Assembly (NCBI GenBank): GCA_003971905.1
Contig: RSEE01000091.1
Span: 124,001 to 188,000, forward strand
Direction of reading: 5' to 3'
From: Moniliella sp. 'wahieum'
Lineage: Eukaryota
Length of the DNA: 64,000 nt
This document shows positions 5,724-58,663 of the stretch, piece after piece. The translations under genes and the position numbers were made by a program. Each line of letters opens with the position of its first letter. Position 1 is the stretch's first letter. The notes under the pieces were generated by a model. That model was given only the letters and a program-made list of their open reading frames with translations. It made no database searches and was not told where the DNA came from.

Positions 5724-8340
5724 TTACATGACGAGGCACTGGTTATCGTTAAGTCCCAACTCTTTCCGTTCCTCTTGTTTTCGATCACGTTCGTTCTCGC
5801 GATCTTTGGCGCGGACTTCGCGTGGGAACCAAACTTGGAGTAAGTTGGTCATGGCCGTATCGAGATTGCGTTCGCCTGCTGAACCAACGGCGTCGGGGCG
5901 CGGCAGAGCGGGCAGGCGGTCGACCTTGTTTTTGAACTTGACCAAACACCGAAGAACAAAACAAGTGCTGGCAGCCAGTCGGATCGGGCGCCAGGCCACA
6001 TCGAGACAAATCGACACAGGAATAGTCGTCGAGCGAAGGTAAGATAGGCATCAGTTGATCAGTCATCACGAAAATAAAAGTGAGCCAACGATTCGCTTTC
6101 TTTGCCAGTCGCACTCAACATGCCTCCTGGCCCTGTGAGCGGAAGGAGAGCTTCGAGCGACGGGACGCACGTCGCAATGGGCGCTAGCGCTCGTGCTCGC
6201 CCGCCCGCCCATTCAGCCCCAGTGGGCACGATACCTCCGCCCCCGTCGAGCGCGGGCATGTGCGCCGTCAGCCCAGGCGCTTTTTTCCCCTTTCGCCGTA
6301 ACAGACGAGGGAGCTTTTGAACGTCCAGCTGGGACTGGGACTCGCATCGAGGTGAGGGGTTGGCGGTTGCCAGAAGCGAGTCTGGGGGCAATGACGCAGA
6401 TACAACACCTGCCTCTCCCTCCTGCTCCGGCTCCACCTGGAAAACCGTACGGTCATGTTCGTGTTGCGCCATGAAAGCGCGCAGCCCCGTGCCGGCAGTC
6501 AAGGCGGTACGTTTGTCGTGTTTCTTGAGAATCTTGCGTGCTGCCTCGAGGTTGAGTCGCTGGTACTTTTTCACATCGAGCAACGCCACGTTGAGGGTCA
6601 AAAAGTCGGTCAAGGCCTGTGCCGAGCGGGGGGACAACTTTTCTTCCTGCCGCACCTCGGTGAAGGTAGTCGTACTCCCGACGTCAGGTAGGCCATGCAA
6701 GCTGGATGCGACCTGAGCGGTACCGGCCTCTGCACCCGAGGGCGGTGGTAACACATCCTTCGTCGCTACGCGGGAGGGCGTGATGGGACCCTGGAGCCAG
6801 CCACGACGGTAGAGTTGGTTGGCAAACCCAATCAGCCGACGCTCCGATTCGTCCGCATCCAGTTCCCCGATCCTTCTCGCGTGTTGATTCAAACACTTGC
6901 AAGTCGGTGTACAGCTGGAAGATGGCGCGCCAAGTGTAGAGGTCCGATTGGGCTCCGTAGGGGGAGCTGGCTTGCGCAATGGCTTTGGTCAAGCGTTCGG
7001 TGGCGGTGACAAACTCGGTGCGTTGCAGTGCCTGTACACTCTGCACTGCCACCAGGGCCGAAGTGAATAGGGTCAGGAACAGTTCGTCTGCTACGAGAGG
7101 GATCGTCATCTCCCTCACGCGCACGCGCCGGTCGTGCGGACCAGTTGCTGTTCTTCTCGAATTCGTACCGGGGTGAGGAGATGGGGAGCTGCTGGAATGC
7201 CAGCGGGGGTGGTGTGAAATTGGGAGGGGGTCGAGGAGAACTTCTCATCACTTGTACTGGATGGCAGGCGAGACTGTGGATACTGTGGAGGGGGAGAGGG
7301 GACGACGTTGTGTAAAGCAGGGAGTCGGCACAACCCGTCTGGCGCATGGTCCATCTCCGAATCGCCTTCCCAGTCGGCCTCAGCGCCGGGCTCGCAATAC
7401 GCCTGGTGTGTTGCCATAGCGAGGTGGTAGCGACACGCCGCGTGGACCGGCCACGTCGGCCCTCCTCGTCCGTGGCAGGCAACTCGCGCACCAAAGCACG
7501 TGGAGAAGCGGTGGAAGGTACGGCCTCCATCGTTTCGTTGTCCATCCCTTCGTCTTCGTCCGACGAAGTGACAGGCGACTCGATTGTAATGCGAATACGA
7601 GGGATGGGATGTTCGGTAGTACCGCCCAACTCGTAGGCGGCATGGGCTCGGCGTCCCTCACTGCCCTCGACCCAATCGGTCTGGTCCATCACCACTTCCT
7701 CCACCTCCTCCCTCCTCCTCGTCGCAATCCCGCCGCTCGCGGCGGCAGCCGAGCGGTACGGATGAGGGTCAGGCGCATCGCATACGCTGGTTTGGACGCG
7801 GGACCAAGAGCAAGAAGTTGGTCGTGTGCTGGCCCAGCTGCTGTGAAGCTGCGACGAGGAGGCAGAGTAGTGGGTGGGAGGGGGCGAAGCGCCGCTGTCG
7901 GTAGCGGAGAAGCGTGAGGATCGGTCTTCGGGTCGAAGGGAGCGGTCGCGATGGTGGGCGGAATGGGAAGGGACTCGAGCCAGTCTTTGGCGCTGCTGCG
8001 TGCGGGGTGTGGGGCACCGGCGGGGAGCGCGGCGTGCTGGTGAGCATCCGCAAGTGGCGCAGATGCCGAGGCAGGAGACACATGGGAAGGGGCAGGGGCA
8101 GAGGCAGGCGCAGGCGCAGGCGAAGACGCAGGCGGAGTGGATGTGTTGGGCGTCCTTGATGCGCTGCTGCTCCACCAGCAGCTCGCGCAGCACGGCGGCC
8201 GACAGCCCCAGGGACTCGAGCTCGGCCACGACGCCGTTGATGAGTTTTTTGAGCTGCTTGTACTCGATGGCGCCGCGGCGCCAGCGCTCGGGGAAGGAGG
8301 GGGAGGCAATGGTCTCCTGGTAGGACTTGCCGAACTTCAT
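5724..8340 (-). CDS. SPX-RING E3 ubiquitin ligase (NLA/Pqr1-like); frameshifted
   Basis: N-terminal SPX signature MKFGKSY...IEYKQLKKLI and distal SPX motif LNLEAARKILKKHDKRT. C-terminal RING pieces DDYSC.ICLDVAWRPIRL.CQHLFC.RCLVK. Ends ...NDNQCLVM* at 5724. Confidence 0.88.
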
Positions 8341-9341
8341 CGCGGCATGAGGCGGTGGTGGGGAGGGGGTGGGTGGATGCGGGAGGGAAAGGGGGTTGCA
8401 AGGCGAGCAAGGGGTTACGGGTTAAGCCACATGGCCTGGGGGCGACCGAGTGGTAATGCCGCCTGCCGCCTGCCCTGCACTGCGCCGGCTGTGCTGAGAA
8501 ACAGCGCTCTGGTCTGAGTTCTGAGTCGGCAGTACTCCGCAGCGGGTTTGGATGGCGGGGTAGGGTTGGGCGGCTGCGGCTGCCGCGGCCCATCACCGCG
8601 TGGGTGCGGGCTCATGCATCCGACTGCCCACACTGCTGCGGTGCAGTGGCGTGTCACACGACCTGCATGCAGCCCCTGCGCTGGATGCAGGGGCTGCTAG
8701 CATGCACGCAACATGCTGCGTGCCTGGCCGGTAGGAACAATAATTAATAACCGCTGCCCTGCGCCACACCCCCGGCTCTCGCCCCGTGCCTGTGCCTGCC
8801 CGCCGCCCTGGGCCGCGGGAGGCGCCACGCGGCGCACCCATGCACTTCTGTCGTCGTCATTGACATTGGCCCCTTTGACGTCATATACGTTGTGACATGT
8901 GACAGCGCCTGCAACGGTATGGGAAAGGAGACGGAAAGCGACACAGCGGGTCAGGAAGCGAGGCGAAGAAGAGCAATAAGTACGTTTGCTACTACTACTA
9001 GTAGTCTATAGTCTGCCCTTGGTCATCCGTTCAACGTTCATGCACACTGTAGGCCGATCAATCCTACAACCTCTCACTGATTATAGCAACAAAGACGGGA
9101 TGCTAAAAGGAATGCATGAGAATGTGTAAGCAGTCTTCATGGTGGCGGCACAATAAAAGTCAAAGGGTAAGGGTAGCATTCTCAGCGCCTTCTTCATAGA
9201 CCAGAAGACACACATCAGTGTTCGCCAGAGGATCAAAAACACATGAAAACCCGCGAGAGTCCAATAGTAAAAGGTCCATCACATCATGTAGAAACTTGAA
9301 AGCCCCACATATGGGCCACAGAACAAGGAGGAAACTCAAAA

Positions 9342-31090: not shown

Positions 31091-31783
31091 ACTACCTTGG
31101 TCTAGTCGTAGTACCCTGTTGATACATAATCCGCAATACCTTCGTCCCTTCATCGATTGCTAATCTGGCGAAAGCACCTTCTCAACTATGTGGAGGGCGC
31201 CACCAGAGATATCCTTTTGGACGGTTACGCGTTACGCCCCTCGCAGGCGTGCGTCACCGATCAACTTGGGGCCGTTGTGCAGGGGACCTAGCACTGCCCT
31301 CTAGCAACCGGGCCCAGGATTTCTATTGACGCTGACAGCCCAACTGGAGGGCAGCCAAATCACTGCCCAGGATGCTTGAGCGAACCTGTTTGGCATAGCA
31401 TTGCTGTTATTTCTGCCGATGCAATCAGTTGCGTACAGGGGTCTCGCGACGCGTTTCATACTTTAGCGTGCTTCTCGTAATAAAAGGGGTAAGAGCACGC
31501 GGCTGGACGAGAAGTGGAGTCGACAAATAGAAACATTGCGCATCAAATGTTCATTTCAAATTTAAGTTTAGGGTTGGTCGGCGATTTGTCGACGGCGCAA
31601 TAAAATGCTGGCGCATGGGGAGCCAGTACCATGCCGATTCCTTGCTGCGGCTGTGAAGGCCAATGGGACAGGGACAGTGCCTTGCTCTGAGCGCAGTACT
31701 GCGCTCGCTTTGCCGGATGTCGGTTGTCTGCTTTCGCAAGCCCGACTTCGCGGTTTGCTGTCCACCACACCAAGCGATCTGAG

Positions 31784-32013
31784 GTGAGTCCCGACTTGAG
31801 TCGACTCTGGGGCAAGTGAGAGGGGATTGCGTCTCTGGCTACATGGATTCAGGGGTGTGCCGCTACGCTTGTCCTGACCTTGTCCTGATCCCCCTACCGC
31901 GGTGGTCCAGGAGTTGTCCCAGCCAAGGACGGCGATGCCCCTCTCGCCACATCTTCTGGCCACTTGTTGGGATCTTGACGTACTAACGCGCTGTCATCTC
32001 CTTTTCATTCCAG
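31784..32013 (+). other. 5'-UTR intron of the Ubl-eL40 gene
   Basis: GTGAGT donor at 31784, TACTAAC branch site at 31981, pyrimidine tract and CAG at 32011-32013, 10 nt upstream of the ATG. Confidence 0.7.
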
Positions 32014-32023
32014 GTCTTTCGAG

Positions 32024-32489
32024 ATGCAGATCTTCGTCAACTCTGTCCGGGGCAATACCCTGACCCTGGCTGTGGCCCCCGAGGCTACCGTCGAGTCGGT
32101 CAAGGCTCTCAACTTTGCGCGTGACGGCATCCCCGCCGCGGAGCAGCGCCTGCTCTACGGTGGCAAGCAGCTCGCCGATGGCCGCACCCTTGCCGACTAC
32201 GGCATCCAGAAGGACTCGACGCTGCACATGTCGCTGAGGTATGTTTGATCCCAACCTACAAGGAACGTGGCGATGGCGTCTGGGGTGTACTAACGGAAGT
32301 TGGCGTTGTATCTCTTAGCCTTCTGGGTGGTATCATTGAGCCCTCGCTCAAGGTGCTCGCCTCGAAGACCAACGTTGAAAAGCAGATCTGCCGCAAGTGC
32401 TACGCTCGTCTTCCTCCCGTGCGACCAACTGCCGGAAGCGCAAGTGCGGCCACTCGTCGCAGCTGCGCAAGAAGAAGGTCCTTAAGTAA
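32024..32489 (+). CDS. RPL40: Divergent ubiquitin-like domain fused to 60S ribosomal protein eL40
   Basis: Exon 32024-32238, intron 32239-32318 (GTATGT...TACTAAC...TTAG), exon to TAA 32489. Protein [15 protein letters not shown]...[14 protein letters not shown] | [52 protein letters not shown], restoring one C missing from a C-run near 32418. Confidence 0.95.
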
Positions 32490-32799
32490 ATGCGACCCCG
32501 CTTAGATCTGTCTGGTCTCTGCCTTTGTCCATCCCTGGATATTGGTGGAGGCCGACGCCAAAAGATAGGGCCATTGGGGGAGGGTTTTCCTACCCCATTT
32601 TGACGTGCTAGGCTTGGGCACTGTCAAGGACAGTCAGCGCTTGCTCTGGCGTTGATCATTTTGCTCCCTGGCCTTGTTGTCAAGCCGCCTTTTCATGTCC
32701 CTATGCATGCGCTCCCCTAGCGTGTCTTCATGCATGCTGCTTAACTAATCGGCAAAGACTTGCATAGCGTTGCCCGACAGTTTATGGGACAATCAAACT

Positions 32800-33110
32800 G
32801 GTGCTTTGTTGGTGCGCACCGCATGGATGCAAGACGGAGAATACGTAAAGCGGCGCGATACCACAGAGGCTCCTCTTGCCAAGTAGCATGGAGACCTGGG
32901 ACGAGCACAGAGAGGTAGCGATTTGGGAACTGAGGTCTGGGTAACAATATACTACAGATGTCTCGCTTCTAACCCCCCCCCACAGGGCGATGCTTAGGGG
33001 AGCAAGAGGGAGCTGCGAGCGCCTTGTCACATCCATGAGGTCACGAGGTGCGATGTGGGCGCTGGTGGCGATATGCAGTACGATGTCAAAGAGAAGGCAG
33101 TCGAGCACCA
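32800..33110 (-). pseudogene. Truncated, degenerate F-box family fragment (copy 4)
   Basis: VLDCLLFDIVLHIATSAHIAPRDLM, intron remnant (...ctctctgtgctcgtcccag), then GLHATWQEEPLWYRAALRILRLASM. No ATG at the homologous position and homology stops after the F-box. Confidence 0.8.
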
Positions 33111-33379
33111 CTTGATGATGTGAAAGAGGACGACCAGTGGCGTTTGCGGGGCTGAGATGAATATGCACCCGTTGAGATCCCAACCCGGCCCAGAACTCAG
33201 CCGGGTTTCACTATCACTGCACCTGTCTGCAACATCACGCATGCATCACGCACCTCAGCAGGTACCTGTGGTCATAGAAATAGCAGAGCCAACCCCGCAA
33301 CAAGAGGCTTGAAAACGCTTGCCCCCACCAGGCCCCACCCCCTCTGTTCTTGGACACACGGGGACCCACCATCGCCAGC

Positions 33380-34777
33380 ATGCAAATCAAGCTGGCCCCC
33401 GGCGCTCGCACTCACGTCCTTATTGCCCCCGAGCCCGTGCACACGCGTCCCCTCTCCCTCCTTGGCAACCAGTATACCATCCAGGCGAGCTCTTCCGCCC
33501 GTCCGCCAGTTCGCTGCGTGCCCTCCTTGTTCTCGCCAATGCGACCGGCGTGACCGCGAGTTTTTACCGCTTGTTTGCGCTCTGGTTTGCCTCCCAGGGC
33601 GTTGGGGTGGCAACATTTGACTACCGATGGACTGGACGCTCTATCCCCCCCGGCTACAGTGGCGATGATGGGGTGCGCGCGTGTCCAGACAATGTGAGCT
33701 TGACGGGGACATGGGCACGAGAAGACTTGCGGCTGGTTATCAGTGCGCTACGGGACGAAGCATTTGCCCTTTTGGGTGCGGCGGCGGACGAATTGGAGTT
33801 GACAGTGTTGGGTCATTCGTTGGGAGGGCATTTGGCCGCTGTCCAAGACGCTGCCTTTACTCTCAGGCCGAATCATGGTGGTCGTGGCCAGACCGTCTCT
33901 CGCATCCTCACTGTGGGCGGGGCGAACCCGCACTGGCGTATGCACACCCACACCTCCCCTGAGGCAGTGAAGCACTTTTGGCAACACATGATTGCCCGCG
34001 GATGATGACCGAGGGTGTCTTCCGTTCCTCTGCCGCTGGGCTGGGAGTAGATTATCCTGCCAGCCCTGGGTGGGAGTGGTATGAGTGGTAGGTGTCTCTT
34101 ACCACACATTTGAGGAACCGACGCCAAATACTGACCCGTAATGTTACCAGGATGATGCACCCGCTCTTTAGCCTGGCACGAGAGGAGAATGAGAACCACA
34201 TGCGTGCCAACTTGGCTGCCATCCCGTTGACCATACTCCAGTTCCAAGATGACAATATGATTCCCCTGGAGTACGTGTCGTTTCTCTATGGCTGGCGAGT
34301 TAGAATGTGTACTTATCATCATCTCTGTGGATTTGTGGACCCAGTGCCATGTTTGAAAAGATGGCAAGCCAATATGCGGCGGCACAGCCTCTCCCACTCA
34401 AGCTCGATCCGGCACTGCCGTATGACGAGGGTGTACTGCCCTATGGAGGGCATGTGCATCTCTTCCGTCCCGGCACTAACGGTGGCCCGTCCATCACCAC
34501 CGACAGCGTTGTTCTCCGGCGAGAAGATGTCTACTGGCCGTTCGTGCTCGCCTACGTCTTGCACGGGGAGGTGGACACAGACCTGCTGAGTCAAGTGCGA
34601 CTGTGCCACCGTACCATCGACTTTGCCCGTGCCAGGATGGAGGAGAAGGAAGCGCGCCGGGAGGAATGCGAGGCAGCACGAGTGGCAGGAGAGCCGATTC
34701 CGATATTTGAGCGGGCGGATGTAGAAGAAGCAGGGCCTGCCACGAGGCTGCAGGAACATCCCACTGCCCGGCTTTGA
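33380..34777 (+). CDS. Alpha/beta hydrolase (resembles the COG4757-type predicted hydrolases)
   Basis: ANATGVTASFYRLFALWFASQGVGVATFDYR...TWAREDL...LTVLGHSLGGHL (nucleophile elbow), acidic FQDDNMIP and histidine GGHVHLFRP. Introns near 34088-34150 and about 34271. Confidence 0.82.
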
Positions 34778-34989
34778 TGGCCTACCAACTACTGCAATAG
34801 GCTGTCTATTGTTACGGGCCGCGTCTCGGATCTAAGATGGTCTGATTCGAACTAAGGTCCTTCTGCTCTACCCACACCCAGTAGAGCGCGCTCCCAACTC
34901 CAACCAAGTTTGACCGTTGCTGGTCAAACCTTGTGCGGTGGCCCCGATGGTCACGCATCCGGTCGCACCTTGCTCAAGTTGAAGTCGGT

Positions 34990-35560
34990 GGCCATAATGA
35001 GGCCACCGCCAAGTTGTCGGTATCATTAATACAACAATACAACAATTTTCGCCGCGTTCCCGTTTCTCTCTTTCCATTGTGCCTGTGGCATCCAACCTCC
35101 CGTTTCTATGTCCCCCTTTGCACCCCTTCATTGTATGGTTTTCCTTTTAGATCTAGCCTGGACCCCTAGTTGGTGGGGATCTTTGCCCCTTTCATTTGCG
35201 CTGCCTTCAGCCTTTCCTGTTCACCACATCTGCCTTTTCTCCAGGCAATTGTCCACAACCTCGTCTCCACTTAGTTTCCTCCTTGCCATTCGATCTCGCC
35301 TTTGAACTCCCGTCTCCCCGCTCTCAGCGTTTCCAACAGTCAAGCCGGGCGAGCCCTCCTCTAGCCACGTCGAGTTCAGTACCAGTCTTGTCGCGTCGGT
35401 TTCTATTCGAGCCCCGCGAATCCGGCCCCTGCCAAGTCCTAGCTCTAACAGTGTTTGTCCTCTGCTTCCATTTCCCGTCCCTGAGCCTCGAAGGCTTCAG
35501 ACACGTCAGGACTGCCAAAGCAGGTGCATACCCATCCTTGTCACACACCTGCAGACATCC
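34990..35560 (+). repeat. Degenerate dispersed repeat, copy A (homologous to about 50050-50600)
   Basis: Colinear matching blocks, e.g. ttcccgtccctgagcctcgaaggcttcagacacgtc vs ttcccatccctaagcccggggcttcagacacgtt, and cccctagttggtggggatctttgcccc vs ccccttgttgatggggatcctttcccc. Confidence 0.7.
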
Positions 35561-36635
35561 CTGTGCTCTACACCCAGATGCCACTCTCCTTGTCCCTAAT
35601 ATAGCTCTGATGCTCGGATCCCCCAACCAGCTAGTCAAGCACTAAATTCTTTCTTACTGCTGGAGTAATCATCTCTGCCACTGGTCTTCTCTTCGTCGCT
35701 CTTCGCGCCCTACCTTGATTATATATATCCGACTTAGTTTGGGTGGCTGCCTGCGTGCGAAGGCCGCAGCTCACAGACCCTCCGAGGTAGGAGCCGCGTA
35801 CATAGGTCGTTAGACCAGTTGAAGGGGTCCAGGAGCTCCCAAGTTACTCTGTTCCTCATCGCAGCGTTACCACACTCGGAACGCTGTAGTAGGCGGGAAC
35901 AGACAGAGCTATAAAGACTCAAGAGCAAGCGCTTCTGATGAGGGCAACCACGGCTTGCAGCGTACTCGACGGAATAAGTCGTAAATTCGTAAGCGTAAGG
36001 GTGGTAGAAGGTGTAAGTATTGTGCAGCTAAGTGGGGATGGAGGTGGTAAAGTCATAAGATTTACTGCATAGCTCCCACAGGAGCAATGCTCCCATTCGC
36101 AAAGAGTAAAAACAAGAAAGATAAGAAAACTACTGCTGCAGTGCCACTGGTCGCATGTCACCAGTATAGCACGCAATTCATCCACACAACAGTAAGAGCG
36201 AGAGAGGAACGGGTAGTCGGGGAGACCAAAACAGGAGACAATATGGTCGACAAGGATCACAGCTAGCAAGCCTTAGTAGACATGGCTGCTTAGTATATAC
36301 AACAGAAGGAATCAGGTCTCAAGTGCCTCATCACAGAAGGGATAAACAGAATGCGGGGCACTTTCTAGAGAGTTAAAGACTAATGCACAGCCATGCTCTC
36401 AAAGGCGCTGACGCTGCGTAGTCGGGCGCAGTAGGAAGGATTCTGCCACGGCTGGACGCGATGGGTACACAGTATCGTACCGATGAACCCATGCGTCCTT
36501 GGCGGCGACCGGGATGATATCCATCATGGATAAGGCGTCGACTGACTCTTTCGCGATAGTCAACAAGGCTGACGCGTGTCCGGCTGAGATGTCTACGACA
36601 TGTGGGGCTCAACGTCCGGAGATAACAGGAGCGCC

Positions 36636-39017
36636 CTAACAAAACCGCAGTTTCAGTACACTCAATGGGTCCTCAGCCAATCGCGTGCCCGCGTGCCCCA
36701 GTCCCAGTGCACCTGCACCACATAAGGCTGATGGATGGCTTCCTTGCCCAGTCCATCGCGTCCGTCGCTGCCCTGAGGTTTGACCTTTCGGCGGATGGTG
36801 TTCAGCCGTGTCTCCTGCATCGATCATCCAATACGGGGGTTAACCACAGTTGCGCTGGCAATGGAAAGAGAGTACGTACTTGCGGTGGATGTATTTCCTG
36901 CAATAATGGAAGAAAAGCGCTGAATGCGACGGTGGCACTGGCCGGTGTGAGCAGGCAGGCGGACGGCGTCCATTGAGAACTGTAGTGCACGGTGCTCAAC
37001 ACTTGGTCCCCTCCGCACATGGGCCCAAGGGAAAAGTTCGTGCCCAACACTATTGGTTCAGGCTCCGAAGCATCCACCATTATGGCAGGCAGGGGGAGGT
37101 CGGTCACGCGAATCTCGTCTGGCCGTGACGCATGCTTCCAATCCACCAAACCATTCGCATCGATCCAACAACAAGATCGGCTTCAAGAGAGGCCTGGGCC
37201 TAAAGGGAGAATCTGCCGACGATTTGTACTGGCCAATCGCCGCGATGACTTTGTGCCTTCGTCACTTTCACATGCCAGTCGGGAACCAAGACAGGCAAAG
37301 AGCTCGGCCATCGTCGATAAGAGATCGCATTTGACGCGGCTTAAGATCTGCTTCCGTTCAAACAGGCTCCACAGCCGCACCTTGGAGCGCTGTGGTGGGC
37401 TGATATCAATAAAACACCATCCACGGATCAGAGCTCAGCGAGTGCGGGGCTAATATGGCAAGATAATGTTTGACCAGCACTAGACGCACCATCAAGCGCC
37501 TCGTGCTCTCGAGGAATAGAAAGACCCAGGTATCCGATGAGGGCCAGAAAGTAAACCCCCACATAGGTTGATGTGTTACGTCCAAATCTGGAAATGTAGG
37601 CGCGATTTTCAGGAACGAGTGACCTTGAGGGGTGGCTGGGCCTTGGAGCGTAAAATAGGACCGGGACATCTTCACTCCGGCTTGGGCCGACATGAGCTGG
37701 GTAACATTGAAGATGCATGTGCCAGTCGCACGTTCGAGAACGATCCACGTACGTTCGTTCCAAACATAGGCCCAATTCCGATCGATGCTAAGATGATGAG
37801 CGCCAACGATCCATGTCCTAGGATCGACTATATCGACGCGTTTCAGAAGTGCCACTTCATCCCTCCTCTCTCTGGAAAGGAGATTGTAAGTGTTGAGTTC
37901 AGCCTGGTCGTCGTCATTCGGTGAGTAGCTCCTGATGAGATTGATCCAGTCACCCACAGGTCAGGTACAAATTTTGTGCGCACGATTCTCATTTTAGGAT
38001 GAAGATCCACGCACAACGTAAACAAGTAAGGGTATTGAACGACAGCTGCGTAAATCTCATTTTGAAGTACAGCACGTCATAGGCTTCGTCCAATTCGTGG
38101 CATTCATCGGATCGAAACCCTCCAGAGGTGCATGCATTTGTCCGATACACCACCACACGTTGCTGGTGGTACTGGGACCCACCCTTGCTCGATAACGCCG
38201 TGGCCGTGGGCATTTCGACGAGCCACCGCAGCAAGACCCAGCCTTCTTCCTGCACCATCCCCCGTAAAGGGTTTCCCTTCCGGCCCCCGGAAACGCCAGA
38301 AGACGCGGGATTGTGAGTAGTCATATAATCCTTCATGACAGCTATGTCCTCAATTTGGTGGAATCGGGGATCGTCAAACTCTTTAATTTTCCGGCGCTGG
38401 TGCATAACGGTTGCCGGGGCAAACGTGGGTATGGGCAATTTAGCCTGCCCACACAGGCCAGCCATTGTATCGCACTGGGCACGAGGGAGAACCGTAGTAA
38501 GATGCGGGGCTGGAGATGGATCGGGGTTTGTTTGCCGAGGGCGTCGTCCCCAAAATAATGGATCCCTAGTCATCTGCTGGGGAGGGGGGATGGTTTGCTG
38601 GTGAGCAGAGAGGTTCCGGTCATGGTCCACCCAAACTCTTCCTCCAGCATCTCACAAGCAACAAGCAGTCCCTGCCACGTGCGCGTGCAACCTCAAAACC
38701 GGCACACTGATGGGGCCTGAGGGAGAGTGGTGGCCATGGATGGAAGATGGAGAAGAAGTAAAGCGACATGATGCCACAGCGTTTCGTCTTGCAAGATAGC
38801 ATGGAGGCCTGGGATGAGCACAGAGAGTTAGCGCATCCGACACTGAGTCCTGGATACTACAGATGTCGTTCCCCCCTGCAAGGCGATGCGTGGGGGGACA
38901 GGAGGGAACTGTGCGCGCACCAAGACACGTCCACGACAGGTGGATGAGTTCACGAGGTGCAAGGTGGCCGCTGGTGGCGATTTGCAGAAGGATCTCAAAT
39001 GGAAAGCGGTCGAGCAT
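36636..39017 (-). CDS. F-box protein, lineage-specific family, copy 2
   Basis: MLDRFPFEILLQIATSGHLAPRELIHLSWTC, the same intron as copy 1, then ...LQDETLWHH. Internal blocks WAYVWNERTW, DWKHASRPDEIRVTDLPLPA, EPIVLGTNFSL and LGLGHAGTRLAEDPLS are shared with copy 1. Confidence 0.78.
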
Positions 39018-39851
39018 TGCAGTTGATGGTGATATAATGAAGAGGGTCCGAGGTGTGTTGCAGGGATTGCAGGGGTTGGGGGATTCTCCAAAGCATCGAG
39101 GACACTGTGACCGTCCTATTATATACCGCGAGTGTGGCGCACAGAACAGCTATATGCATTCCCGGATTTCAACGCATATTCAGTTGTGAATTGAATAAGA
39201 GAGTCAGCGTGTCTGTGCGATATATATACGTAAATCACGTTCCCCTCATGTTGAGCCATCGGGTGGCTCGTGCTTTGGCCAACGCCGCATCAGTTCCTCC
39301 TCAGGCCTAGGAGTTCCGGTTTTCTCTCTCCTGTTTTTCCTTGTTCGGCAGCCTTGCCCCTGGGGGCAACTCGCTGCTCGATGATCCGCTAGGCGTGTCC
39401 TCGAGTTTAACCACCGCCACCACCAGTGCGATTGCGATTGCATTATCATCGAGGGCCATCGGGACTCCAGGTCTCATCACCGGCATCCCCTCAATCTGTA
39501 ATTAGGGGATAGGAGGAACCACCGCCACAGCTCGAGGTTCCCCCTTCGCTCTGGCCCTTTGGTGTGAATGAGGCGATCGGGTTATTTTCGAATATAAAGC
39601 ACCACATTTCGCAACCCTCTCATCGATGAAGCACAGATGTTAACTCTGCCCCGTAATATAGTGTACTACGATTTGACATTAGTGATAATTGAGGATGCTT
39701 TCAAAGCTACGGTCATCCATCGCAGCCGCACATGGAAGGGGCCCCAAACGCCACAATTATCCGTACCCACATTGCGCCCATCTTGCCGAACCTCGTAATT
39801 GGTCCGTCTGCGCACCGTTTTCGCAGCGGTTTAGTTTTCTGGAAAAAGGAT
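39018..39851 (-). repeat. Duplicated upstream region of F-box copy 2 (inverted relative to 62612-63434)
   Basis: Reverse complement aligns with 62612-63434, e.g. gtacggataattg(t/c)ggcgtttggggccccttccatgt, tcgtagtacactatattac and ggaactcctaggcctgaggaggaactga. Confidence 0.9.
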
Positions 39852-40881
39852 TTATACACGTTTCATATAACCTGTGATAGCCCTTCTGGTTGATACCTGC
39901 GCCGATGGATCAGGGACCTGACCAACAGGACTTGAGGACATATATGGACCCGTACGGGAAGTTGGTGCCTCCAATACCTAACCAAAACAGGGAGAAGGGC
40001 TCGGCCGTCGTCAATCACACAGTTTGGCCTCTCCGACATATGGATCTATAGGCATACAGAAGTGGACCGGGCGGGCACAAGAAAGCAAAGAGGGCGCGTC
40101 AGTTGGGGTCAGAAGAGGCTCAGCGGAGTCGACAACATTCAGGACAGGGCCCCCTGGCTCTTCCGCTCTTCGATCACTTCCAAAAATCGGATGTGGCGCG
40201 AGTGGATACGAATTATTAGCATGATAGAAATGTGAGCGTTGAACGTCTGCAACGTACGTGACTCTTCATGATATTCTTCAGTCTATTCTTCCTGTCCTCT
40301 ATTAACATCTTTCTTGCCTCGATCCTCCTCAGTGGTGACATATATAGTACCCGCGCGTCTCTCTTCGTCATAAGTCTAGCTGTTGAGCACACAGATGTGA
40401 CATGTGAGCAGGTTTTGAGAAGAAAGAGCGCATGAGCTCGCTGATTAGCTCTTCCTTTATGGCAAAGCTTTTTCGTTATATCGTGTGCTTCTCCGACAAT
40501 CAGCTTTTTGGCGGTGCCATTCTTTCACGACGGTAGCCAGGAGACCCATGTGGAGAATACATATGCATAGCAAGTTCCCACACGGACGCTTGTGGATCCC
40601 AGTCGATAAGTGTGGGTCGAAAACGACCGTTATTTCGACGCGACCCGCAAAAACCTGTCTTGCGGCGGCCCACACATGCGGCGCATCAGATCCATCAGAC
40701 ATCCGATCTCCGATCTCGAAGAGAGGCCCACGCAGCCGCCATCATGCATCAGGCATTGAATAATGATGCGGACTAGTGACTGGCTGACTGACAAGGCCGC
40801 TCTGTAAGCACCAAATAAACTGGGGCCTACTGGGGCACTGTGGGGCCCGCCGACCAGCCGAAACATGCAGCGCCACGTGCT

Positions 40882-40956
40882 GTGTCACATGCCACATCAC
40901 ATGTCACATGGATACGTCAAACGCCACGCGTCACGCGTCACACGTCACACGTCACC
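40882..40956. repeat. 7-bp periodic GTCAC/TCACATG array
   Basis: gtgtcacatgccacatcacatgtcacatg...cgcgtcacgcgtcacacgtcacacgtcacc. Confidence 0.7.
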
Positions 40957-42478
40957 GTTCGCACCTGCGATACATCAGCCTCAGAAGAGGAAAGACCACG
41001 CCAGGCCCCCCTGTGGGGTGAACCAATCTTACGGGGGGGATCATATATCAGGAAGCTGGGAGAGGGCACGTTCATTACTCTGGTGCTAGCTACTGCTGCG
41101 CCAGCGGTGCATATGCTTTCAACCATTTGGCATATGCAAAATGCATGGCATATATATACTTCCTGACATGTGGCATCACCTCCTTCGTCTGCACCACACG
41201 CTGATGGCTATCACGTGGAGAAGAGCACGTGCGTGCAGACCGCGAAAAACAGGGGGGCAGCCATGCCAGTCACGGATAATTCATAATGCATTTTATGGCA
41301 GACACGAGGTGTTCATCCCCAACAGCCAAGACACTCCTGGATAACTCGATAACCGCATACCGCGGGAGACATCTCGCAGCACAGCGCATTCCACATCCCA
41401 CCCACCTCCTCTTTCTCTCTTCCTTATTTGTTTTGGGGTTCATGGAAGCGGCACCATGTTCCGTTCACATTCTCTCCTTGCCGAACTGAACATGCTAATA
41501 GACGCCCACAGGATGCCGCACTTCCCTGGTAAGTATAGGTGGCTTTTCGATGTCCACATACGTATCAAAAAATACCCGGCTATGTGGCTTGATTTCTGTG
41601 TACACACACATCAATTTTCGTACAGGGTTGTCGATAAAATGTAACAAAATTCATGCCTATCGCATTGCACATCATCTAACGTCGTTTGTTGTTGATGCCT
41701 TTTTCACGCGTTGCCTTTCATATGCTAAGTTATCAGACCACACACCATTTCGCCTATCCGTTTCTTTTGTGGGGTGCGCTAGAATACGGCGTGTTATTCT
41801 CATCTGTGTTCTCCATCGAACCACAAATCGCATACTCCACACGCCAGTGTATAACCGGTGCATGCGGCCCGCGAATCAATATCAAGAGTGCCCAAACACT
41901 ATAGTTAATCATAGAATACAATGCGTATTAGCTTCATTACCAAAACCATGCCACCATGCTTGGGCATCTGTGGTATATAATTCAGTTAGAAATGCAAGGG
42001 ACCGCATGCGGCGATGTATATGTGGTAAAAGTTGAGGGGCAGACAGCATGCCTTTGGAGTATGTTACGGACACGATTGCTGCTATAGTACGCTTTGAGCA
42101 GAAACCAACTCTGAGAGCATCCACCGCATGTATAGCGATCATATGATGTGGTTGTCGTTCACACACACCTTCTTCAAAATGAGCGCTAAGTCCTAAGCCT
42201 AAGCGCTGAACCGAAAAGCCACTGTTATTTCTATCTTGGACACAGCCCACGTTCCCCCCGTGCAGATGGTCCTAATCGATCTATACGATGATACAAGCTT
42301 TAGGGGGAGTAGGGGCTACGTACGAAAGAGCCTCGCACCACAATAATGACAAAAACGGACATCCACACCATCGGCAAACGATATAAAGTGCACTCTTGTG
42401 TGTTGATGACCTTTCCATCTTCATCAGTAGCACACGGATTCTCTTCCTACTTTCATCTGCCCCACTGTCCGCACCCCC

Positions 42479-47602: not shown

Positions 47603-49302
47603 ATGCCACCTCAGACCCTGCGATCCAGCTTCTTCCCTACCCCCGTGTTGCCCCGTGGCAATCTGGTCGCCACGCTGCACAGCAACCCCAACGGCGCCCC
47701 AGACTCGGCCCCGGCCTTTATCCGCGCCTCGGATGGCAAGGTGCTTACGCGCGGCGAGGTAATCCACACCACCTCTTACCGCTTTGCCCATGCATTGGTG
47801 CACAAGCTCAACCTCGCTCCCGGGGATACTGTCGCGCTTGTTGCGGGCAACTCGACGTTGTACCCGGTGATTGTGCATGCCTGCCTCGCTGCGGGCGTGG
47901 TGGTGGTGCCGCTCAATGCAGCGTATACCTCTGACGAGCTTTCCCACCCCTTTGCCGATGCTGCGGTCAAGTACGTCTTGGTCCAGCCGCAGGATGCATC
48001 GGTCGTAGCTGTGCGTACAGCCCTGGAGAAGATCGGCCACCCACGCGCCAATGCGCCGGACACGGTCTGGCTCCTGTCCGACGATGATGTGTTGGCTCAG
48101 GGGGCAGGCGGTGAAAAGGATCTACGCACCCTATTGGATCAACAGGAGCTTGCACCCATTCCCATTCGCGATCCGGAAAACACGCCTGCCTTCATCGCCT
48201 ATTCGTCGGGAACGACGGGCCGGTCCAAAGGCGCAATCCTGAGCCATACCAATATGACCTCATGCTGTGTTTACATGACGGAGATCACCAAGCTTTTCCT
48301 CTCGGCTGGCACGATGACCATGGCGGTTCTTCCGATGCAACATGTGTTTTGCCTCACATTCCATGTGCATCACACCTTTTACATTGGTGCGCCGTGTGTC
48401 GTGCTCGATTCGTTTTCGCTGGCCAAGTTTTGTTCGGCCATTCAGCAGTTCAAGGTGGAGTGGACCTCGGTTGCTCCTCCCATCCTACTCCTCCTGGCCA
48501 AAGTCCGATGTGGAGAAGTACGACCTTCGCTCCCTTGTTGCAGTGCAATCGGGTGCGGCGCCACTCTCGTCGGCGCTTGTGTCCGAGGTCGAAAAGCGCT
48601 TTCCCATCTCAAGATTGCCAATGGTTACGGGTTGACCGAAGCCAGTCCCTTGGTCTGCATGGACGACCCCAAAGTTAGTGCAGCGCATGGGAACCGAGGT
48701 AGCGCCAACCGTTTGATCCCTGGGCTGGAAGTGCGCCTGGTGAATGACGAAGGGAAGGATGTGGGACTGACCGAGGGCGAAGGTCCTGATGGAGCGACGT
48801 TATCGGGCGAAGTATGGTTGCGTGGACCCACAATCTTCCGAGGGTACCTGAACAATGACCAGGCCAATGCCGAATCGTTCGCTCCCGAAGGGTGGTACCG
48901 CACCGGCGACCTCGGTTCCTTCCGCCAAGGTCGGCTGACAATCGAGGAACGGCTCAAGCAAGTAATCAAAGTGGGCGGAAGGCAAGTGGCCCCGTCGGAG
49001 CTAGAGGCGATCTGCTCACGCATCCCAAGGTCGCAGATGCAGCGGTGGTGCCCTTGTACGTGGAGGAAAAGTCGGACGAGTACCCATTGGCGTACATTGT
49101 GGTCAAGCCCGAGTTCAAGGGAGACAAGAGCGTGCCGGAGGATGTACGCGCATACGTGGATGGCAAGGTGGTGTACTACAAGCGCCTTAGGGGAGGCGTG
49201 CGCATCATCGATGCCATCCCCAAGTCCCCGTCGGGCAAGATTCTGCATCGCATCCTCCGGGACCAGCTCAAGGCAGAGCAGGCTCCCAAGGCTAAACTTT
49301 AG
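47603..49302 (+). CDS. 4-coumarate-CoA-ligase-like AMP-dependent acyl-CoA ligase with C-terminal PTS1 (AKL)
   Basis: AFIAYSSGTTGRSKG, GYGLTEASP, GEVWLRGPTIFRGYLNN, GWYRTGDLG, RLKQVIKVGGRQVAPSELE, IPKSPSGKILHR; ends QAPKAKL*. Confidence 0.93.
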
Positions 49303-53751: not shown

Positions 53752-56700
53752 ATGGACGCGCCGCCGCTCAGTGACTTGACGGGGGATGTGTCGTTTGCGG
53801 CGCCGGCCAAGCTGCGGGTGCTGCTGACACCGGTGGGGCGCGGCGGGGCTGCGGACCGGCAGTTTGAGCACTGGGCCTCGCTTGTGCGTCGCTTTGGCAC
53901 GCTGCGCCTGGCGGACCTACCACGGAGTGCGCGCCACGCGCCAGCGTCGCCCCCGGCAGTGCGCTGGCGCGCAAGGGCGAGGTGCACATCAGCTTTGCCA
54001 CCTCCTACGACCCTGCCCATGCCTTCCTCGCCCCCTTTGCCCTCTCCCGCACTGTGCTCGCCGTCGTGGGCCTCGCCACCGCTACACCGGCGCCCCTGGC
54101 CGACGACCACCACGCCTCCGCCGACGAGGACAACTCTGCTGGATCACTCGCGGGCGCCGTCGAAGAGCTCAAGCGCGCCCATCCCGGAGCTCTGATGCAT
54201 CGTGTTCTAGCCTTCGATGCTGCCCAGCCCGTCGCTGCGCCCTCTGACCCGCAGGCGACTTGGGTGCCGTCGAGGGCGCGGATGGATCGGGGGAGGGCGA
54301 GGCCAATGGCCATGGCGGTGATGCTGACGATAAAAGCGACTCCGAGAATCCATGGAAAGCCTCCTCCACCACCGGCGCCTGGCGCAGCCAGACGAAGACC
54401 ACCAAGGGCGATTACGATCCCAATTCCTCTGCCGAGCGAGCTAAACTGCAGGCTCTCCATGCCCAGCTCTTGGGTGCTGGCATGGCCGAGAGCGGGATGG
54501 GCGAAGGCGGTGGAGAAGATGGCGACAACGACAAGCACGCCAGGACGAACTGCTCGTCATCCCTGCCCACCGTGCTGACGGTAAGGACGTTCGTCACCAC
54601 GTCAAGACCGCATTGGCCGATGTCATCTCGGCCCTGCTAGATCAGCTAGAGGAGATGGTGGACACACTCAAGGGTGTCCCGCTCGAAACGCCACGCGACA
54701 CGCTCGATGGTGGCTGTCGTCGCTGCTGACTACTTCCCAGCACCCAACTGCCTCACCGCCCCAGACGCCCGAAGAAGTGGGGGAAACTGTTTGGCATTGC
54801 GCCTGATACACGCAATTCGGGTGGCAGTGGGACGTGGGACCGCGCTTCGTCCCTTTTCTCATTTTCCGGAAAACCTGAGCCATCGTCCGGCACCCCCATC
54901 AAGGCCATGGGTGGTGGCCAACAGCCGGAATCGCTTCAGTTTGCCCGGTCCATCTCTGTCTCCAGCTCCTCGACTAACCTTTCCCGTCCCCCGAGCATTG
55001 CGCCCAAACGCATCAGCTCCGCCTGGCGTAAAACCACTACCGGCAGCTCCGGTCCGCAGGGTGAAGGACGTCACACCAAGATCGTGGCCGAGTGTATCTC
55101 CTCTCAGGCGACCTGTGGAACGCCATGGCGCACTACGATTTGGCTATGAAGTGGATGGGGAAAGAACGTTCCTTAGCTGGTGGCCGCGATGCAGTCTGGT
55201 TTGCTTCAGCCCTCGAAGGCTGGGCTGTGACACGCGCTCTGATGGCCCGCTTGGGCAAGGGTGTGGAGGAAAGGGTAAGTATCCTATATTTTCTTCCTAT
55301 CTTGAATGCGTCTTGCTCACCTCAACTTCCAGGCTACCCCGCTTACCGTCGCTGTCGGCAAGGACAAGGACAAAGAGCAAGCCAAGCGCGAAAAGGAGAA
55401 GGATGGTACGGCCGACTTGCCTTATGAAGGTTTGCCATGGGAAAGCATTGCCAAGGCTACACGGTGGCCATCAGCATCTATGCCAAATGTCTTTCTCCGC
55501 TGTCTGTCTTCTAGCGCCAGCCAAAGCTGTTTCTTCTAATTCGCCCACCGACTTTCCCACCCACTCATCCATGCCACTGCCTGTGTCCAGTACTCACGGT
55601 TCCTTTTGGCCATCTGGAGCTGCCGTGGATGGAACGGCGAGTGCTTTGACCAGCTTCTCTATGGAGGTACCCCTCTTCTCCTTAGAGGCGACGGCCCAGC
55701 TCCAGATGAGGCCAGCCTCATCCAATGGTCCCTCGATGCTGGTGTGCGGCGGGACGAGATAGCGGCGGCTGCGCGCCAAGCGCTGACGCTTTCTGTACCG
55801 GCGCTCAAGGCGCGGGACCAAGTGGATGTGCTTTCCTCAATGGCGAGCCTGTTTGGCTGGATTGGTTTCGTGCGAAGAGAAACGTACCTCCTGCGCCGTC
55901 TTCTGGCCAGCGTGATGGATTGGCTTCACGCTGCCGCTCACGCTGGGGTGGATATCCTGCGCATCCGTCTAGGTGAGGTGGCGCCTGGCTTGCATGTGAT
56001 CTACTCCCCGCACCGGGGCAAGGCGGACTACGATGCTCTTCTCGTTCTTGCCGCCCAGGTATGCGATACATATGGGATCCAGCTGGATGAGATGTTGGTT
56101 CACGTGCCTGACGACCATGCGTTGGCGCGTACTCGCGATGTCCGCCGTCTGACCTCCTTGGGTACCTTACGGCCCGAGGCGGCACGCCAGCTTTGGGCAC
56201 GCGAGCGATATCGTCCCCTCGACGGCGAGGAGGAAGGGTTGAACGATGCATTGTCGGAAATGCACGCCGAAGCCTTTGGCTGGGACGAGGTCCAGGCGCT
56301 GGTTGTGAAAGATGCACTTGCCATTTCCGAAACGGTGGGCGACCCCATTGCGATGGCTGTTTTGCCTCGGTCTTGTTGCGCGACTTCGCTCCCCTTTTGC
56401 CTAAGGCGAACAGGCGCAGCTCGTTGCCGGACTGAACCAGTTGGTGCGGAACGAGCGGGATGTGTTTGTTTCGCCTGATGACAACGAACCAGGCAAGCGC
56501 AACGGAAAGACCGTGGTGCAGTACTGGGGCCCGCGCCAGCTCGTGTGCCGCATGGACCTGCTGACTCCGAGCGAGACCAAGAAGGTGACTGAACGCTCTC
56601 GGGCACTCGATGCGCGGGCAAGTAAGAAGCCCAGCTCCATGCTGGTCGTAAGCGACGATGAGGTGACCACATCGGTGGTTCTGTACAACCCGTTGGATGT

Positions 56701-58663
56701 TCCGTTGCCCCTGACAGACCTGCGTTTGCTTGTCACAGGTGTCCGTTTTGACCCAACGCCCAGCACAGCTACTGTGCCCGCCAAATCGTTTTTGCGTCTT
56801 CGTCTGACTGGCACTCCTAGGGAGACGGGTACCCTTTACCTGGTCGGGGTACGGGTTACCCTCCAAGGCTGTGGACCTGAGGAGGTACGGCTGACTCCAC
56901 TCGACGCGACTACCGAACTGGCCTGGACCAACGCCGAGGCGGACCTCATGATCGTCGGTTGCGGACCAAGTTTACTGGCTTGGCCTCACGCTTCACCCGT
57001 GTACCCCCGCGGCCATCGGAGGGGTTCGACACGCACACGAGCGTGCGCGTCGTGTTGCCCCAGCCGCTGCTGGAGCTGGAAAGCATGTCTCTTCCTGACG
57101 GGAGGCTGGTCTTGTATGAGGGCGAAACTCGTGTGGTACGCCTGCACTTACGCAACGTAGTGCCTCCGCACGCACCTCGGCTTGAAGTCAACTACATCTC
57201 TCTGGGGTTGGAAGACAACTTGTCGTCCTTGGCGCGCAGCACGCTCGCAGAGGGTGGATTAACCCCGGCAGCCACACATGCACTGGAATACCGCCTTATT
57301 GCCCGTCCTGTTCTCCAGCGCGAAGGCAGTGATACTGCCATCACCATCCCGCCAATGAGTCACGCAGTGTTGCGGTGAACGTGTTTGGTCGCGCAGGCGT
57401 GATGGCGGCCACAATCTCGGTTGAATATGGCTACCTCCCTCCGGATGGCGATACCTTTTATACGCGCCAGCTGCGCCTGTCGTTCCCTGTCGAGGTGGTA
57501 CGGGTGATCCAGCCGCTGGCCTGGGCACTGCGGCCACTGATGGTAAATGATCTGACGGGGCTTATGGCTGCCAACGGATCTCTTACTCCCTTTGATGCGG
57601 AGGAGAACGAGGCAATGGGAGCTGCGCTGGTCCAGGCGGCAGACGAGGCCGAAGGGGACGATATGGCACTGATCAGCTTGGATGTAAAGAACGTGCACCC
57701 GGTTCGAGACTTACGGTGGGTTGGCGTATGCCCCTGCTTCCGCTACAGTCACCGAAGACGGTACCGTGGAGGTGCATCCACCTACTACGGAGGGGGTCAC
57801 GTTCCAGCGCCTTGTGCCCCCGGGGCAGCGGTGTCGTCTCGTGTTACCCTTCCCGCGCTTGGCCCTGCTACCGGAGGTGGAACAGGCCCCGATTCCCTCT
57901 CTGTCTGAACGACAATTCACTGTGACCCGGGGCGGGATGACACCAACGGAAGACCGTCTGATGCGGCGGAAGTTCTGGTACACCCATCTGCTCTATGCTG
58001 GGCTACGGTGTTTCTGGCACTTGCCACCGGCCCAAGGGGGCGGGGAAAGTTTTGCCCATGGCCCCCACGAAGGAACACTTTTGCTACGGGAAGTGCAGGA
58101 CTGGAGCGATGCACAAATCGACCTCCTTCGCGCGTTGCCATTGAGCATCGTCCTTTCCTCCCCTACGCCCAAGCGGGGGAGTTCACCCCCATCACTGCCC
58201 GCATCACCAACTCACTCCCGCGCCCGGTCAAGCTACTTTACCGCCTTACCCCTTTACCGGCAGCCGCGTTGGACCCTAACGGTGCCCCCCTGCCCCCGGC
58301 GCGCCACAAATTGACACGCCCACTCACCCCACCGATCCGATCTTGCGTCACCTGCTCCCTGCCGCTGGATCGCTCACTGCGCGGGTGTTGCCGTGGCCCT
58401 TGCCAGCTGGGGCAAGTACCGAGGTAAGCAAGTCGCTTGCTTTCCTTGCCCGGGGCAGCTATGCTTTTGTGGCGGCAGTAGAGGAAGTGGCGCCTGTTGC
58501 GGCGGAGGAGGGAGGGTCGCAAGCCGATGGTGCCAGTGACCGGACTGCCTCTGCTGGACCCCCGGCTGTGCCGGAGAAGAGGGCGGTGGTGGTGGATGAC
58601 GGTGGGCTGCACACGCGCGTGGTGGCGGTGAGTCGCAATCGGTTGGAGGTCGCAGTGGCGTAG
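53752..58663 (+). CDS. TRS120: TRAPPII complex subunit Trs120 (TRAPPC9); frameshifted
   Basis: SFAAPAKLRVLLTPVG...LRLADL; GRHTKI...YLLSGDLWNA...DAVWFASALEG; GWIGFVRRETYLLR; VVLYNPLDVPL; RLVLYEGETR; YTRQL. Length (about 4.9 kb) fits. Confidence 0.87.

Follow-up and report, generated by a model that had tools for sequence, protein, structure and literature searches.

A Ubl-eL40 precursor gene in the window

The locus lies within the window, the whole stretch of 64 kb of DNA analysed here, and consists of a two-exon gene in which a ubiquitin-like domain (Ubl) is fused to the ribosomal protein eL40. Its features are collected in Table 1. The last residues of the Ubl, counted from residue 70, read SLSLLGG, and the terminal GG runs directly into the IIEPSL of eL40 in a single frame, a junction which is matched by a contig (record 6) of the sludge metagenome run X1. 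No second ubiquitin or eL40 match was found by tblastn within the 64-kb window.

The intron inside codon 72 carries the branch-type motif TACTAAC, as announced in an earlier note on this DNA. Its position and phase are those observed in read-through ORFs of canonical basidiomycete Ub-eL40 genes. In the latter, codon 72 is split as CG|N and specifies arginine, whereas in the window a change of the first base gives AG|C and hence serine. A second, putative intron is predicted in the 5′ UTR and would end 10 nt upstream of the ATG.

The eL40 residues KVLASK, KQIC and GHSSQLR are of basidiomycete type. In tblastn comparisons with the Parajaminaea protein P0168, identity reached 85.7% for the N-terminal piece and 80% for the C-terminal piece; on these figures the eL40 half is itself somewhat diverged.

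Table 1. Features of the Ubl-eL40 gene, in positions of the window
Feature	Position	Strand	Basis
Putative 5′-UTR intron	31784..32013	+	GTGAGT at 31784, TACTAAC at 31981-31987, CAG at 32011-32013; predicted from the sequence
Exon 1, Ubl residues 1-71 and AG of codon 72	32024..32238 (215 nt)	+	Pfam PF00240, E 2.5e-21; X1 contigs identical over 32024-32134 and 32186-32238
Phase-2 intron inside codon 72	32239..32318 (80 nt)	+	GTATGT, TACTAAC at 32288-32294, TAG at 32316-32318
Start of exon 2: last base of the S72 codon, followed by L73, L74, G75, G76	32319..32331	+	X1 record 6 identical through 32335
eL40 N-terminal half, 29 residues, in the Ubl frame	32332..32418	+	Pfam PF01020, profile positions 1-28, E 3.2e-14
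C run short by one base, almost certainly an assembly frameshift	32416..32418	+	Frame split in Pfam and tblastn; contigs of relatives
eL40 C-terminal half, 23 residues, in another frame as assembled	32418..32489	+	PF01020, profile positions 27-48, E 5.4e-10; TAA stop at 32487-32489
Downstream conserved stretch, probable 3′ UTR	32540..32689	+	X3 record 17, with 5 other letters and 2 gaps in 150 nt

The Ubl keeps the ubiquitin fold in a strongly altered sequence

Few known proteins are as strongly conserved as ubiquitin. With five fungal ubiquitins, the Ubl of the window shares only 41-43 of its 76 residues, about 56%. Compared with human polyubiquitin, 40 of the first 70 residues were identical in a hand count on the alignment, and addition of L71, L73, G75 and G76 gives the 44/76 that the earlier note had obtained. 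The individual substitutions it had listed were all recovered. Four lysines are replaced (K6N, K11N, K29L and K33R) while K27, K48 and K63 are kept; the hydrophobic patch L8/I44/V70 has become V/L/S (L8V, I44L and V70S); and the spliced sequence carries both R72S, from the AG|C junction, and R74L. The domain displays no indel relative to ubiquitin, again as described, and also retains GG, L73, H68, R42 and R54. The near-invariant sequence, Arg72, the full set of seven lysines and the L8/I44/V70 patch, which are features of ubiquitin proper, are absent from the Ubl.

An AlphaFold2 model of the domain has a pLDDT of 94.6 and matches solved ubiquitin with a TM-score of 0.95 at 58% identity. Among the PDB matches, the best 60 of 326 were all ubiquitin, ubiquitin fusions or engineered ubiquitin variants, and the names NEDD8 and Rub1 were absent from these 60. 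As judged by the PF00240 match and this TM-score, the precursor begins with a ubiquitin-family domain, as a Ub-eL40 precursor does. It also has the properties of a drifted ribosomal ubiquitin, namely a ribosomal-fusion leader in which the fold and the GG are kept and the sequence has diverged.

Two 151-nt contigs of X1 match 31984-32134 and 32186-32335 of the window letter for letter, with one exception in the pyrimidine tract of the intron, where record 6 has TTT and the window TT (32315-32316). Since these contigs are identical and three orthologues (P0005-P0007, see below) share the unusual residues, the substitutions of the Ubl are not read errors, in agreement with the earlier note.

The eL40 half is frameshifted by one base, almost certainly through an error of assembly

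The zinc cysteines of eL40 had been taken to be intact. As assembled they are not: one C is absent from the run at 32416-32418, and the last two cysteines are therefore out of frame. Read literally, the spliced frame loses eL40 after ...CYARLPP and stops at 32505. The eL40 profile is accordingly divided by Pfam between one frame (positions 1-28) and another (positions 27-48), and tblastn agrees. The gene end at 32489 given previously thus does not apply to the sequence as assembled, and is correct once the frame has been restored by the missing C.

The frameshift site is covered by contigs of relatives, the near-identical X1 contigs reaching only 31984-32134 and 32186-32335. In the four contigs which cover it, the four-cysteine eL40 that is split in the window reads in a single frame. 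Two of these, of the variant type found in the window, carry an extra C at 32416-32418 (X2 record 8, with 1 other letter in 180 nt, and X5 record 21, with 4 other letters), a third variant-type contig (X3 record 16) reads in frame across the same positions, and a canonical-type contig (X2 record 10) has an extra G there. Elsewhere around the gene, positions 31600-31968 are absent from the contigs of all four runs, and the intron from those of X2, X3 and X5.

At least 7 further one-base frame breaks occur in other conserved genes of the window. In an AMP-ligase gene (47636-49299, + strand), one lies within 48960-49060, between ...VAPSELEAI and LLTHPKVADAAV. Four homologues follow one frame to about 49015-49153 and the other frame from 48967-49012, with query residues that abut or overlap, and a C is absent from a CC run. 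A Trs120/TRAPPC9 gene (53752-58648, + strand) falls into seven pieces in alternating frames, compared with an uninterrupted homologue of 1086 residues and 85% identity. Query and genome coordinates are contiguous and leave no room for introns, which implies at least 6 indels in about 3.3 kb; one extra break, near 53928-53931, appears in comparison with the Tilletiaria protein. Indels are frequent in the assembly behind the window, roughly one for every 0.5-1 kb that is coding, and apparent pseudogenes in this assembly therefore need checking.

Two other parts of the window were observed in this connection. An SPX-domain gene (6062-8421, - strand) matches its profile in three different frames (positions 1-103, 104-218 and 280-332), which are separated either by introns or by indels. 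In the approximately 9 kb directly downstream of the Ubl-eL40 gene (33000-42300), no Pfam match at E 1e-5 was obtained among ORFs of at least 110 residues, and genes may be hidden there because of the indel rate.

Since four contigs of relatives carry the base or read in frame, and since frame breaks recur elsewhere in the window, the break in eL40 almost certainly arose during assembly; the TTT of X1, where the window has TT, points in the same direction. Programmed -1 frameshifting at CCT CCC G was considered and rejected, because the relatives have one more base and similar breaks affect unrelated genes. A hidden third intron at the change of frame was also rejected, as the eL40 pieces abut at profile positions 27/28 and the genomic pieces overlap.

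Conservation and codon usage

Sixteen candidate relatives were obtained, 14 of them significant. Among these, identity to the window was 84-89% in the search for the orthologues P0005-P0007, and 86-89% when compared over exon 1. All three orthologue ORFs (3/3) end at the same AG|GT, and exon 1 is open in 4/4 sequences when the window is included. In the exon 1 translations of these four, 53 of 71 positions are invariant, and by hand count all of them share one residue at 21 of the 33 positions where fungal ubiquitin is different. A scan of metagenome contigs with the orthologue alignment gave 483 pattern matches, reduced to 3 loci of 37-38% identity which are not orthologues.

Differences among relatives were also inspected at the exon junction and beyond. 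In X3 record 15, where exon 1 and exon 2 are joined, ten letters differ at the junction, and the codons of S70, L71, S72 and L73 have all changed synonymously, S72 being AGT. For the four variant-type contigs, 13 of 45 differences were itemised, 9 of these 13 being synonymous. All 9 are located in the tail and eL40, together with 2 non-synonymous differences (the same E-to-D twice), and both differences itemised in the Ubl part, D34E and A39S, are non-synonymous. In two contigs of X3 precisely the 80 nt of the intron are missing, with GT..AG ends in one case; these contigs represent either transcripts or a copy of the gene in the relative's DNA that has no intron.

The gene displays the C/G-ending codon bias that had been reported for it, with a GC3 of 0.83, third-position A at 0.01 and an Nc of 31. 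The corresponding values for ten other coding segments of the window are a GC3 of 0.58-0.71, third-position A at 0.10-0.17 and an Nc of 49.5-57.8. A strong bias was also seen in the Ubl half alone. Codon usage of this kind is characteristic of highly expressed genes. Taken together, the conserved orthologues, the synonymous junction changes and the codon bias uphold the proposal of an expressed gene as opposed to decay, and the gene looks active. No sequencing run has at least half of the words of the stretch, and no RNA run is listed among them. Contig depths (about 3 for the variant, 6-135 for the canonical type) were not taken to reflect expression or copy number, since several organisms may be mixed in the runs.

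Host lineage and a probable canonical copy

The best named relatives of the Trs120 segment are Tilletiaria anomala (57%), Tilletia horrida (45%), Acaromyces ingoldii (43%), Jaminaea pallidilutea (42%) and Thecaphora frezii (42%), another database relative standing at 85%. For the AMP-ligase ORF, the best named match is Pseudozyma flocculosa, at 39% identity. On the strength of the Trs120 relatives, the host, a yeast related to the smuts, is placed in Ustilaginomycotina, nearest Tilletiaria, and probably belongs to Exobasidiomycetes near Georgefischeriales; the basidiomycete-type eL40 residues and the codon-72 intron fit this placement.

Variant and canonical-type sequences occur together in two runs. 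X2 contains a variant exon 2 (record 8, depth 3.0) alongside record 9 (depth 3.9) and record 10 (depth 8.1), which represent a gene of canonical type. In that gene a TACTAAC intron ends at the same site, the tail is LRGG, YNCDKQIC is present and ...KLK precedes the stop; its exon 2 is 86% identical to that of the window at the DNA level. In X5, record 21 (depth 3.65) is of the variant type and record 18 (depth 6.1) of the YNCE type. The canonical-type sequences of the two runs, YNCD in X2 and YNCE in X5, belong to different genes. Because X2, X5 and perhaps X3 are mixtures, this co-occurrence is only suggestive. We consider it probable, from these contigs, that the gene is a second RPL40 copy which exists beside a canonical Ub-eL40.

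In a search with the exon 2 protein, the TNVEKQIC variant was not found among the matches, the top ones being canonical basidiomycete eL40. The protein P0215 of Mixia osmundae (GAA98827.1) combines canonical ubiquitin with an eL40 carrying the TNVEK motif and LSVRATQC. The motif is thus not by itself a marker of a spare copy, since Mixia osmundae has ASKTNVEK beside canonical ubiquitin.

A cleavable leader outside the ubiquitin pool

With a probability of about 70%, we read the locus as a working eL40 gene whose ubiquitin-derived leader would be cleavable and remain outside the ubiquitin pool, probably beside a canonical copy. The N-terminal ubiquitin would have escaped the homogenisation that keeps ubiquitin genes identical, and would now evolve as a leader. 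The precursor would be translated at ribosomal-protein levels, its beta-grasp leader assisting the synthesis and folding of eL40 as a cis-chaperone, as in yeast Ubi1. A deubiquitinase-type protease would then cleave after G76 and release an eL40 beginning with IIEPSL, the freed leader being kept out of ubiquitin conjugation by S72 in place of the arginine required by E1.

In yeast, as reported in PMC6721733, productive expression of eL40 depends on the ubiquitin part of Ubi1, which acts as a cis-chaperone and for which SUMO can partly substitute. Since SUMO partly replaces it, a drifted leader with its core, L73 and GG should still serve eL40 and be cut. The chaperone reading is the default one. 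As to conjugation, phage display results in PMC3731359 indicate that the ubiquitin E1 strictly requires R72, an arginine having been present at this position in every clone selected from a library randomised at residues 71-75. The freed leader should therefore not enter the ubiquitin pool. The earlier proposal that it has left this pool agrees with the data, as a domain with 35/76 residues changed and R72 absent would not be expected to act as ordinary ubiquitin.

The reading just given differs in paralogy alone from one in which the gene is the organism's only eL40 gene, with a ubiquitin part which alone has drifted, as in Plasmodium's Vivax and Ovale lineages. A sole RPL40 would suit the ribosomal-grade codon bias. 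It would also suit the dermatophyte entries described below, which resemble ordinary eL40 with a drifted leader, and the ASKTNVEK of the canonical-ubiquitin precursor of Mixia osmundae, which makes the motif compatible with a normal eL40. However, the variant in X2 and X5 is accompanied, at a similar depth, by canonical-type contigs of exon 2 whose intron site is the same, and other Ustilaginomycotina have canonical Ub-eL40, so that we hold a sole copy to be possible at well below even odds. The chances of a decaying duplicate, that is a pseudogene or a dying RPL40 paralogue whose frameshift is real, appear minimal. The assembled sequence is indeed frameshifted, its ubiquitin half is 46% changed and its eL40 half has drifted too. 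Against this, one-base frame breaks occur throughout the window in genes which are not expected to be pseudogenes, 4/4 contigs over the site have the additional base or are in frame, an open exon 1 is seen in 4/4 orthologous sequences, the junction changes are synonymous and the codon bias is the strongest in the window.

Two further readings concern the fate of the leader once released. It could enter the ordinary ubiquitin pool after all, as its closest solved relative is ubiquitin and K48, K63, GG and H68 are kept; we regard this as most unlikely, since R72 has become serine whereas the ubiquitin E1 kept Arg72 in all selected clones (PMC3731359), the patch now reads V/L/S and four lysines are lost. 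Alternatively, the leader could be a lineage-specific modifier, conjugated via the NEDD8 E1 or via a private E1. Conjugation may be compatible with a sequence in which GG, L73, K27, K48, K63, H68, R42 and R54 are kept. Moreover, S70 and S72 are fixed in the relatives, the tail is held by selection, and Ser72 is within the tolerance of the NEDD8 E1. In phage display (PMC3731359), this enzyme accepted ubiquitin bodies with an uncharged residue 72, serine included, and was relaxed at positions 71, 73 and 74. A modifier nevertheless seems very unlikely. Lysine retention is expected from descent alone, no E1, E2 or protease gene adjoins the locus in a Pfam survey of 201 ORFs of the window, and drifted ribosomal ubiquitins elsewhere are read as chaperone-only in PMC10457151. 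If true, it would be a new Ubl present in ribosomal amounts, which could form its own marks or chains.

The preferred reading, a working eL40 gene with a cleavable leader, corresponds to an event of a type that is rare but was known before, and implies no new system. Considered with the dermatophyte and Pleurostoma entries presented in the next section, it suggests repeated escapes in ordinary fungi that have been overlooked in annotation, and that such escapes are less rare than is stated in the literature (PMC10457151). Natural variants of this kind reveal which features of ubiquitin are sufficient for an eL40 leader (the fold, GG, L73 and the core, all of which are kept), the leader of the window having dispensed with R72 and R74, with four lysines and with the I44 patch. 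Labelled as a source of ubiquitin, the gene would be misannotated.

Comparison with known ubiquitin fusions

For divergent ubiquitins encoded by UbL40 genes, PMC10457151 cites Catic and Ploegh (2005). According to PMC10457151, UbL40 drift is extremely rare and known only from Giardia and from two occurrences in Plasmodium (the Vivax and Ovale lineages), the statement on Giardia being qualified in the supplementary text; the authors discuss a chaperone-only role for divergent UbL40. The changes in Plasmodium UbL40 affect at least 15% of sites, (PMC10457151), versus 46% in the window. In Plasmodium, the drifted gene is the organism's own UbL40 locus, whereas in the window a canonical copy probably coexists and the host is a fungus of Dikarya.

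Canonical Ub-eL40 (yeast Ubi1/Ubi2, human UBA52) shares with the gene of the window a 76-residue domain ending in GG, an eL40 beginning with IIEPSL and, with the frame restored, its CxxC...CxxxxC cysteines, the intron site and phase (in basidiomycete genes) and, as expected from PMC6721733, the role of a cis-chaperone that is cleaved off. The gene of the window differs by its lack of R72, R74 and four lysines, by its altered patch, by an identity of 41-43/76 and by an eL40 that is 80-86% identical to a canonical protein from Ustilaginomycotina.

Drift of UbS27a is known in Caenorhabditis and many protists (PMC10457151), and FUBI-eS30 is the animal analogue (PMC8122580). Like the leader proposed here, those of UbS27a/UBL-1-eS31 and FUBI-eS30 end in GG and are removed before assembly, no conjugates being known (PMC8122580 and PMC10457151). 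Their partners are eS31 or eS30, in contrast to the eL40 (PF01020) of the window, which is therefore not a FUBI fusion. FUBI is devoid of the chain-forming lysines of ubiquitin, whereas the window keeps K27, K48 and K63. NEDD8/Rub1 shares an uncharged residue 72, which bars the ubiquitin E1 (PMC3731359). It differs by Ala72, Arg74 and the tail LALRGG, compared with Ser72, Leu74, LSLLGG and fusion to eL40 in the window.

The earlier note knew of no fungal eL40 case, a statement that does not hold for the databases. Among the 120 matches listed, 66 have at least 74 residues before eL40. In 26 of them this leader is at least 72/76 identical to ubiquitin, 33 are intron read-throughs or wrong starts as judged by eye, and 7 are truly drifted leaders, made up of 3 JGI proteins and 4 annotated fungal entries. 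The JGI metagenome proteins (P0135, P0153 and P0197) are drifted Ubl-eL40 precursors; P0153 has VESVKAL and an LSLRLLGG tail as in the leader region of the window, but with a two-residue deletion. The annotated entries, equally divergent, come from the dermatophytes Microsporum canis (XP_002847964.1), Trichophyton interdigitale/equinum (EGE02146.1) and T. benhamiae (XP_003009881.1), database proteins P0213, P0226 and P0238, and from Pleurostoma richardsiae (KAJ9134344.1, P0182). A literature search found no published account of drifted UbL40 in fungi, these entries included. As in the window, the dermatophyte and Pleurostoma precursors belong to Dikarya and keep the GG; their leaders of 76 or 74 residues are identical to ubiquitin at approximately 40/76 positions (ungapped) and are followed by an intact eL40. 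Their tails (LVLDLPGG and LVFSLRGG) and other substitutions are unlike those of the window, and because of these differences the dermatophyte and Pleurostoma cases look like independent events.
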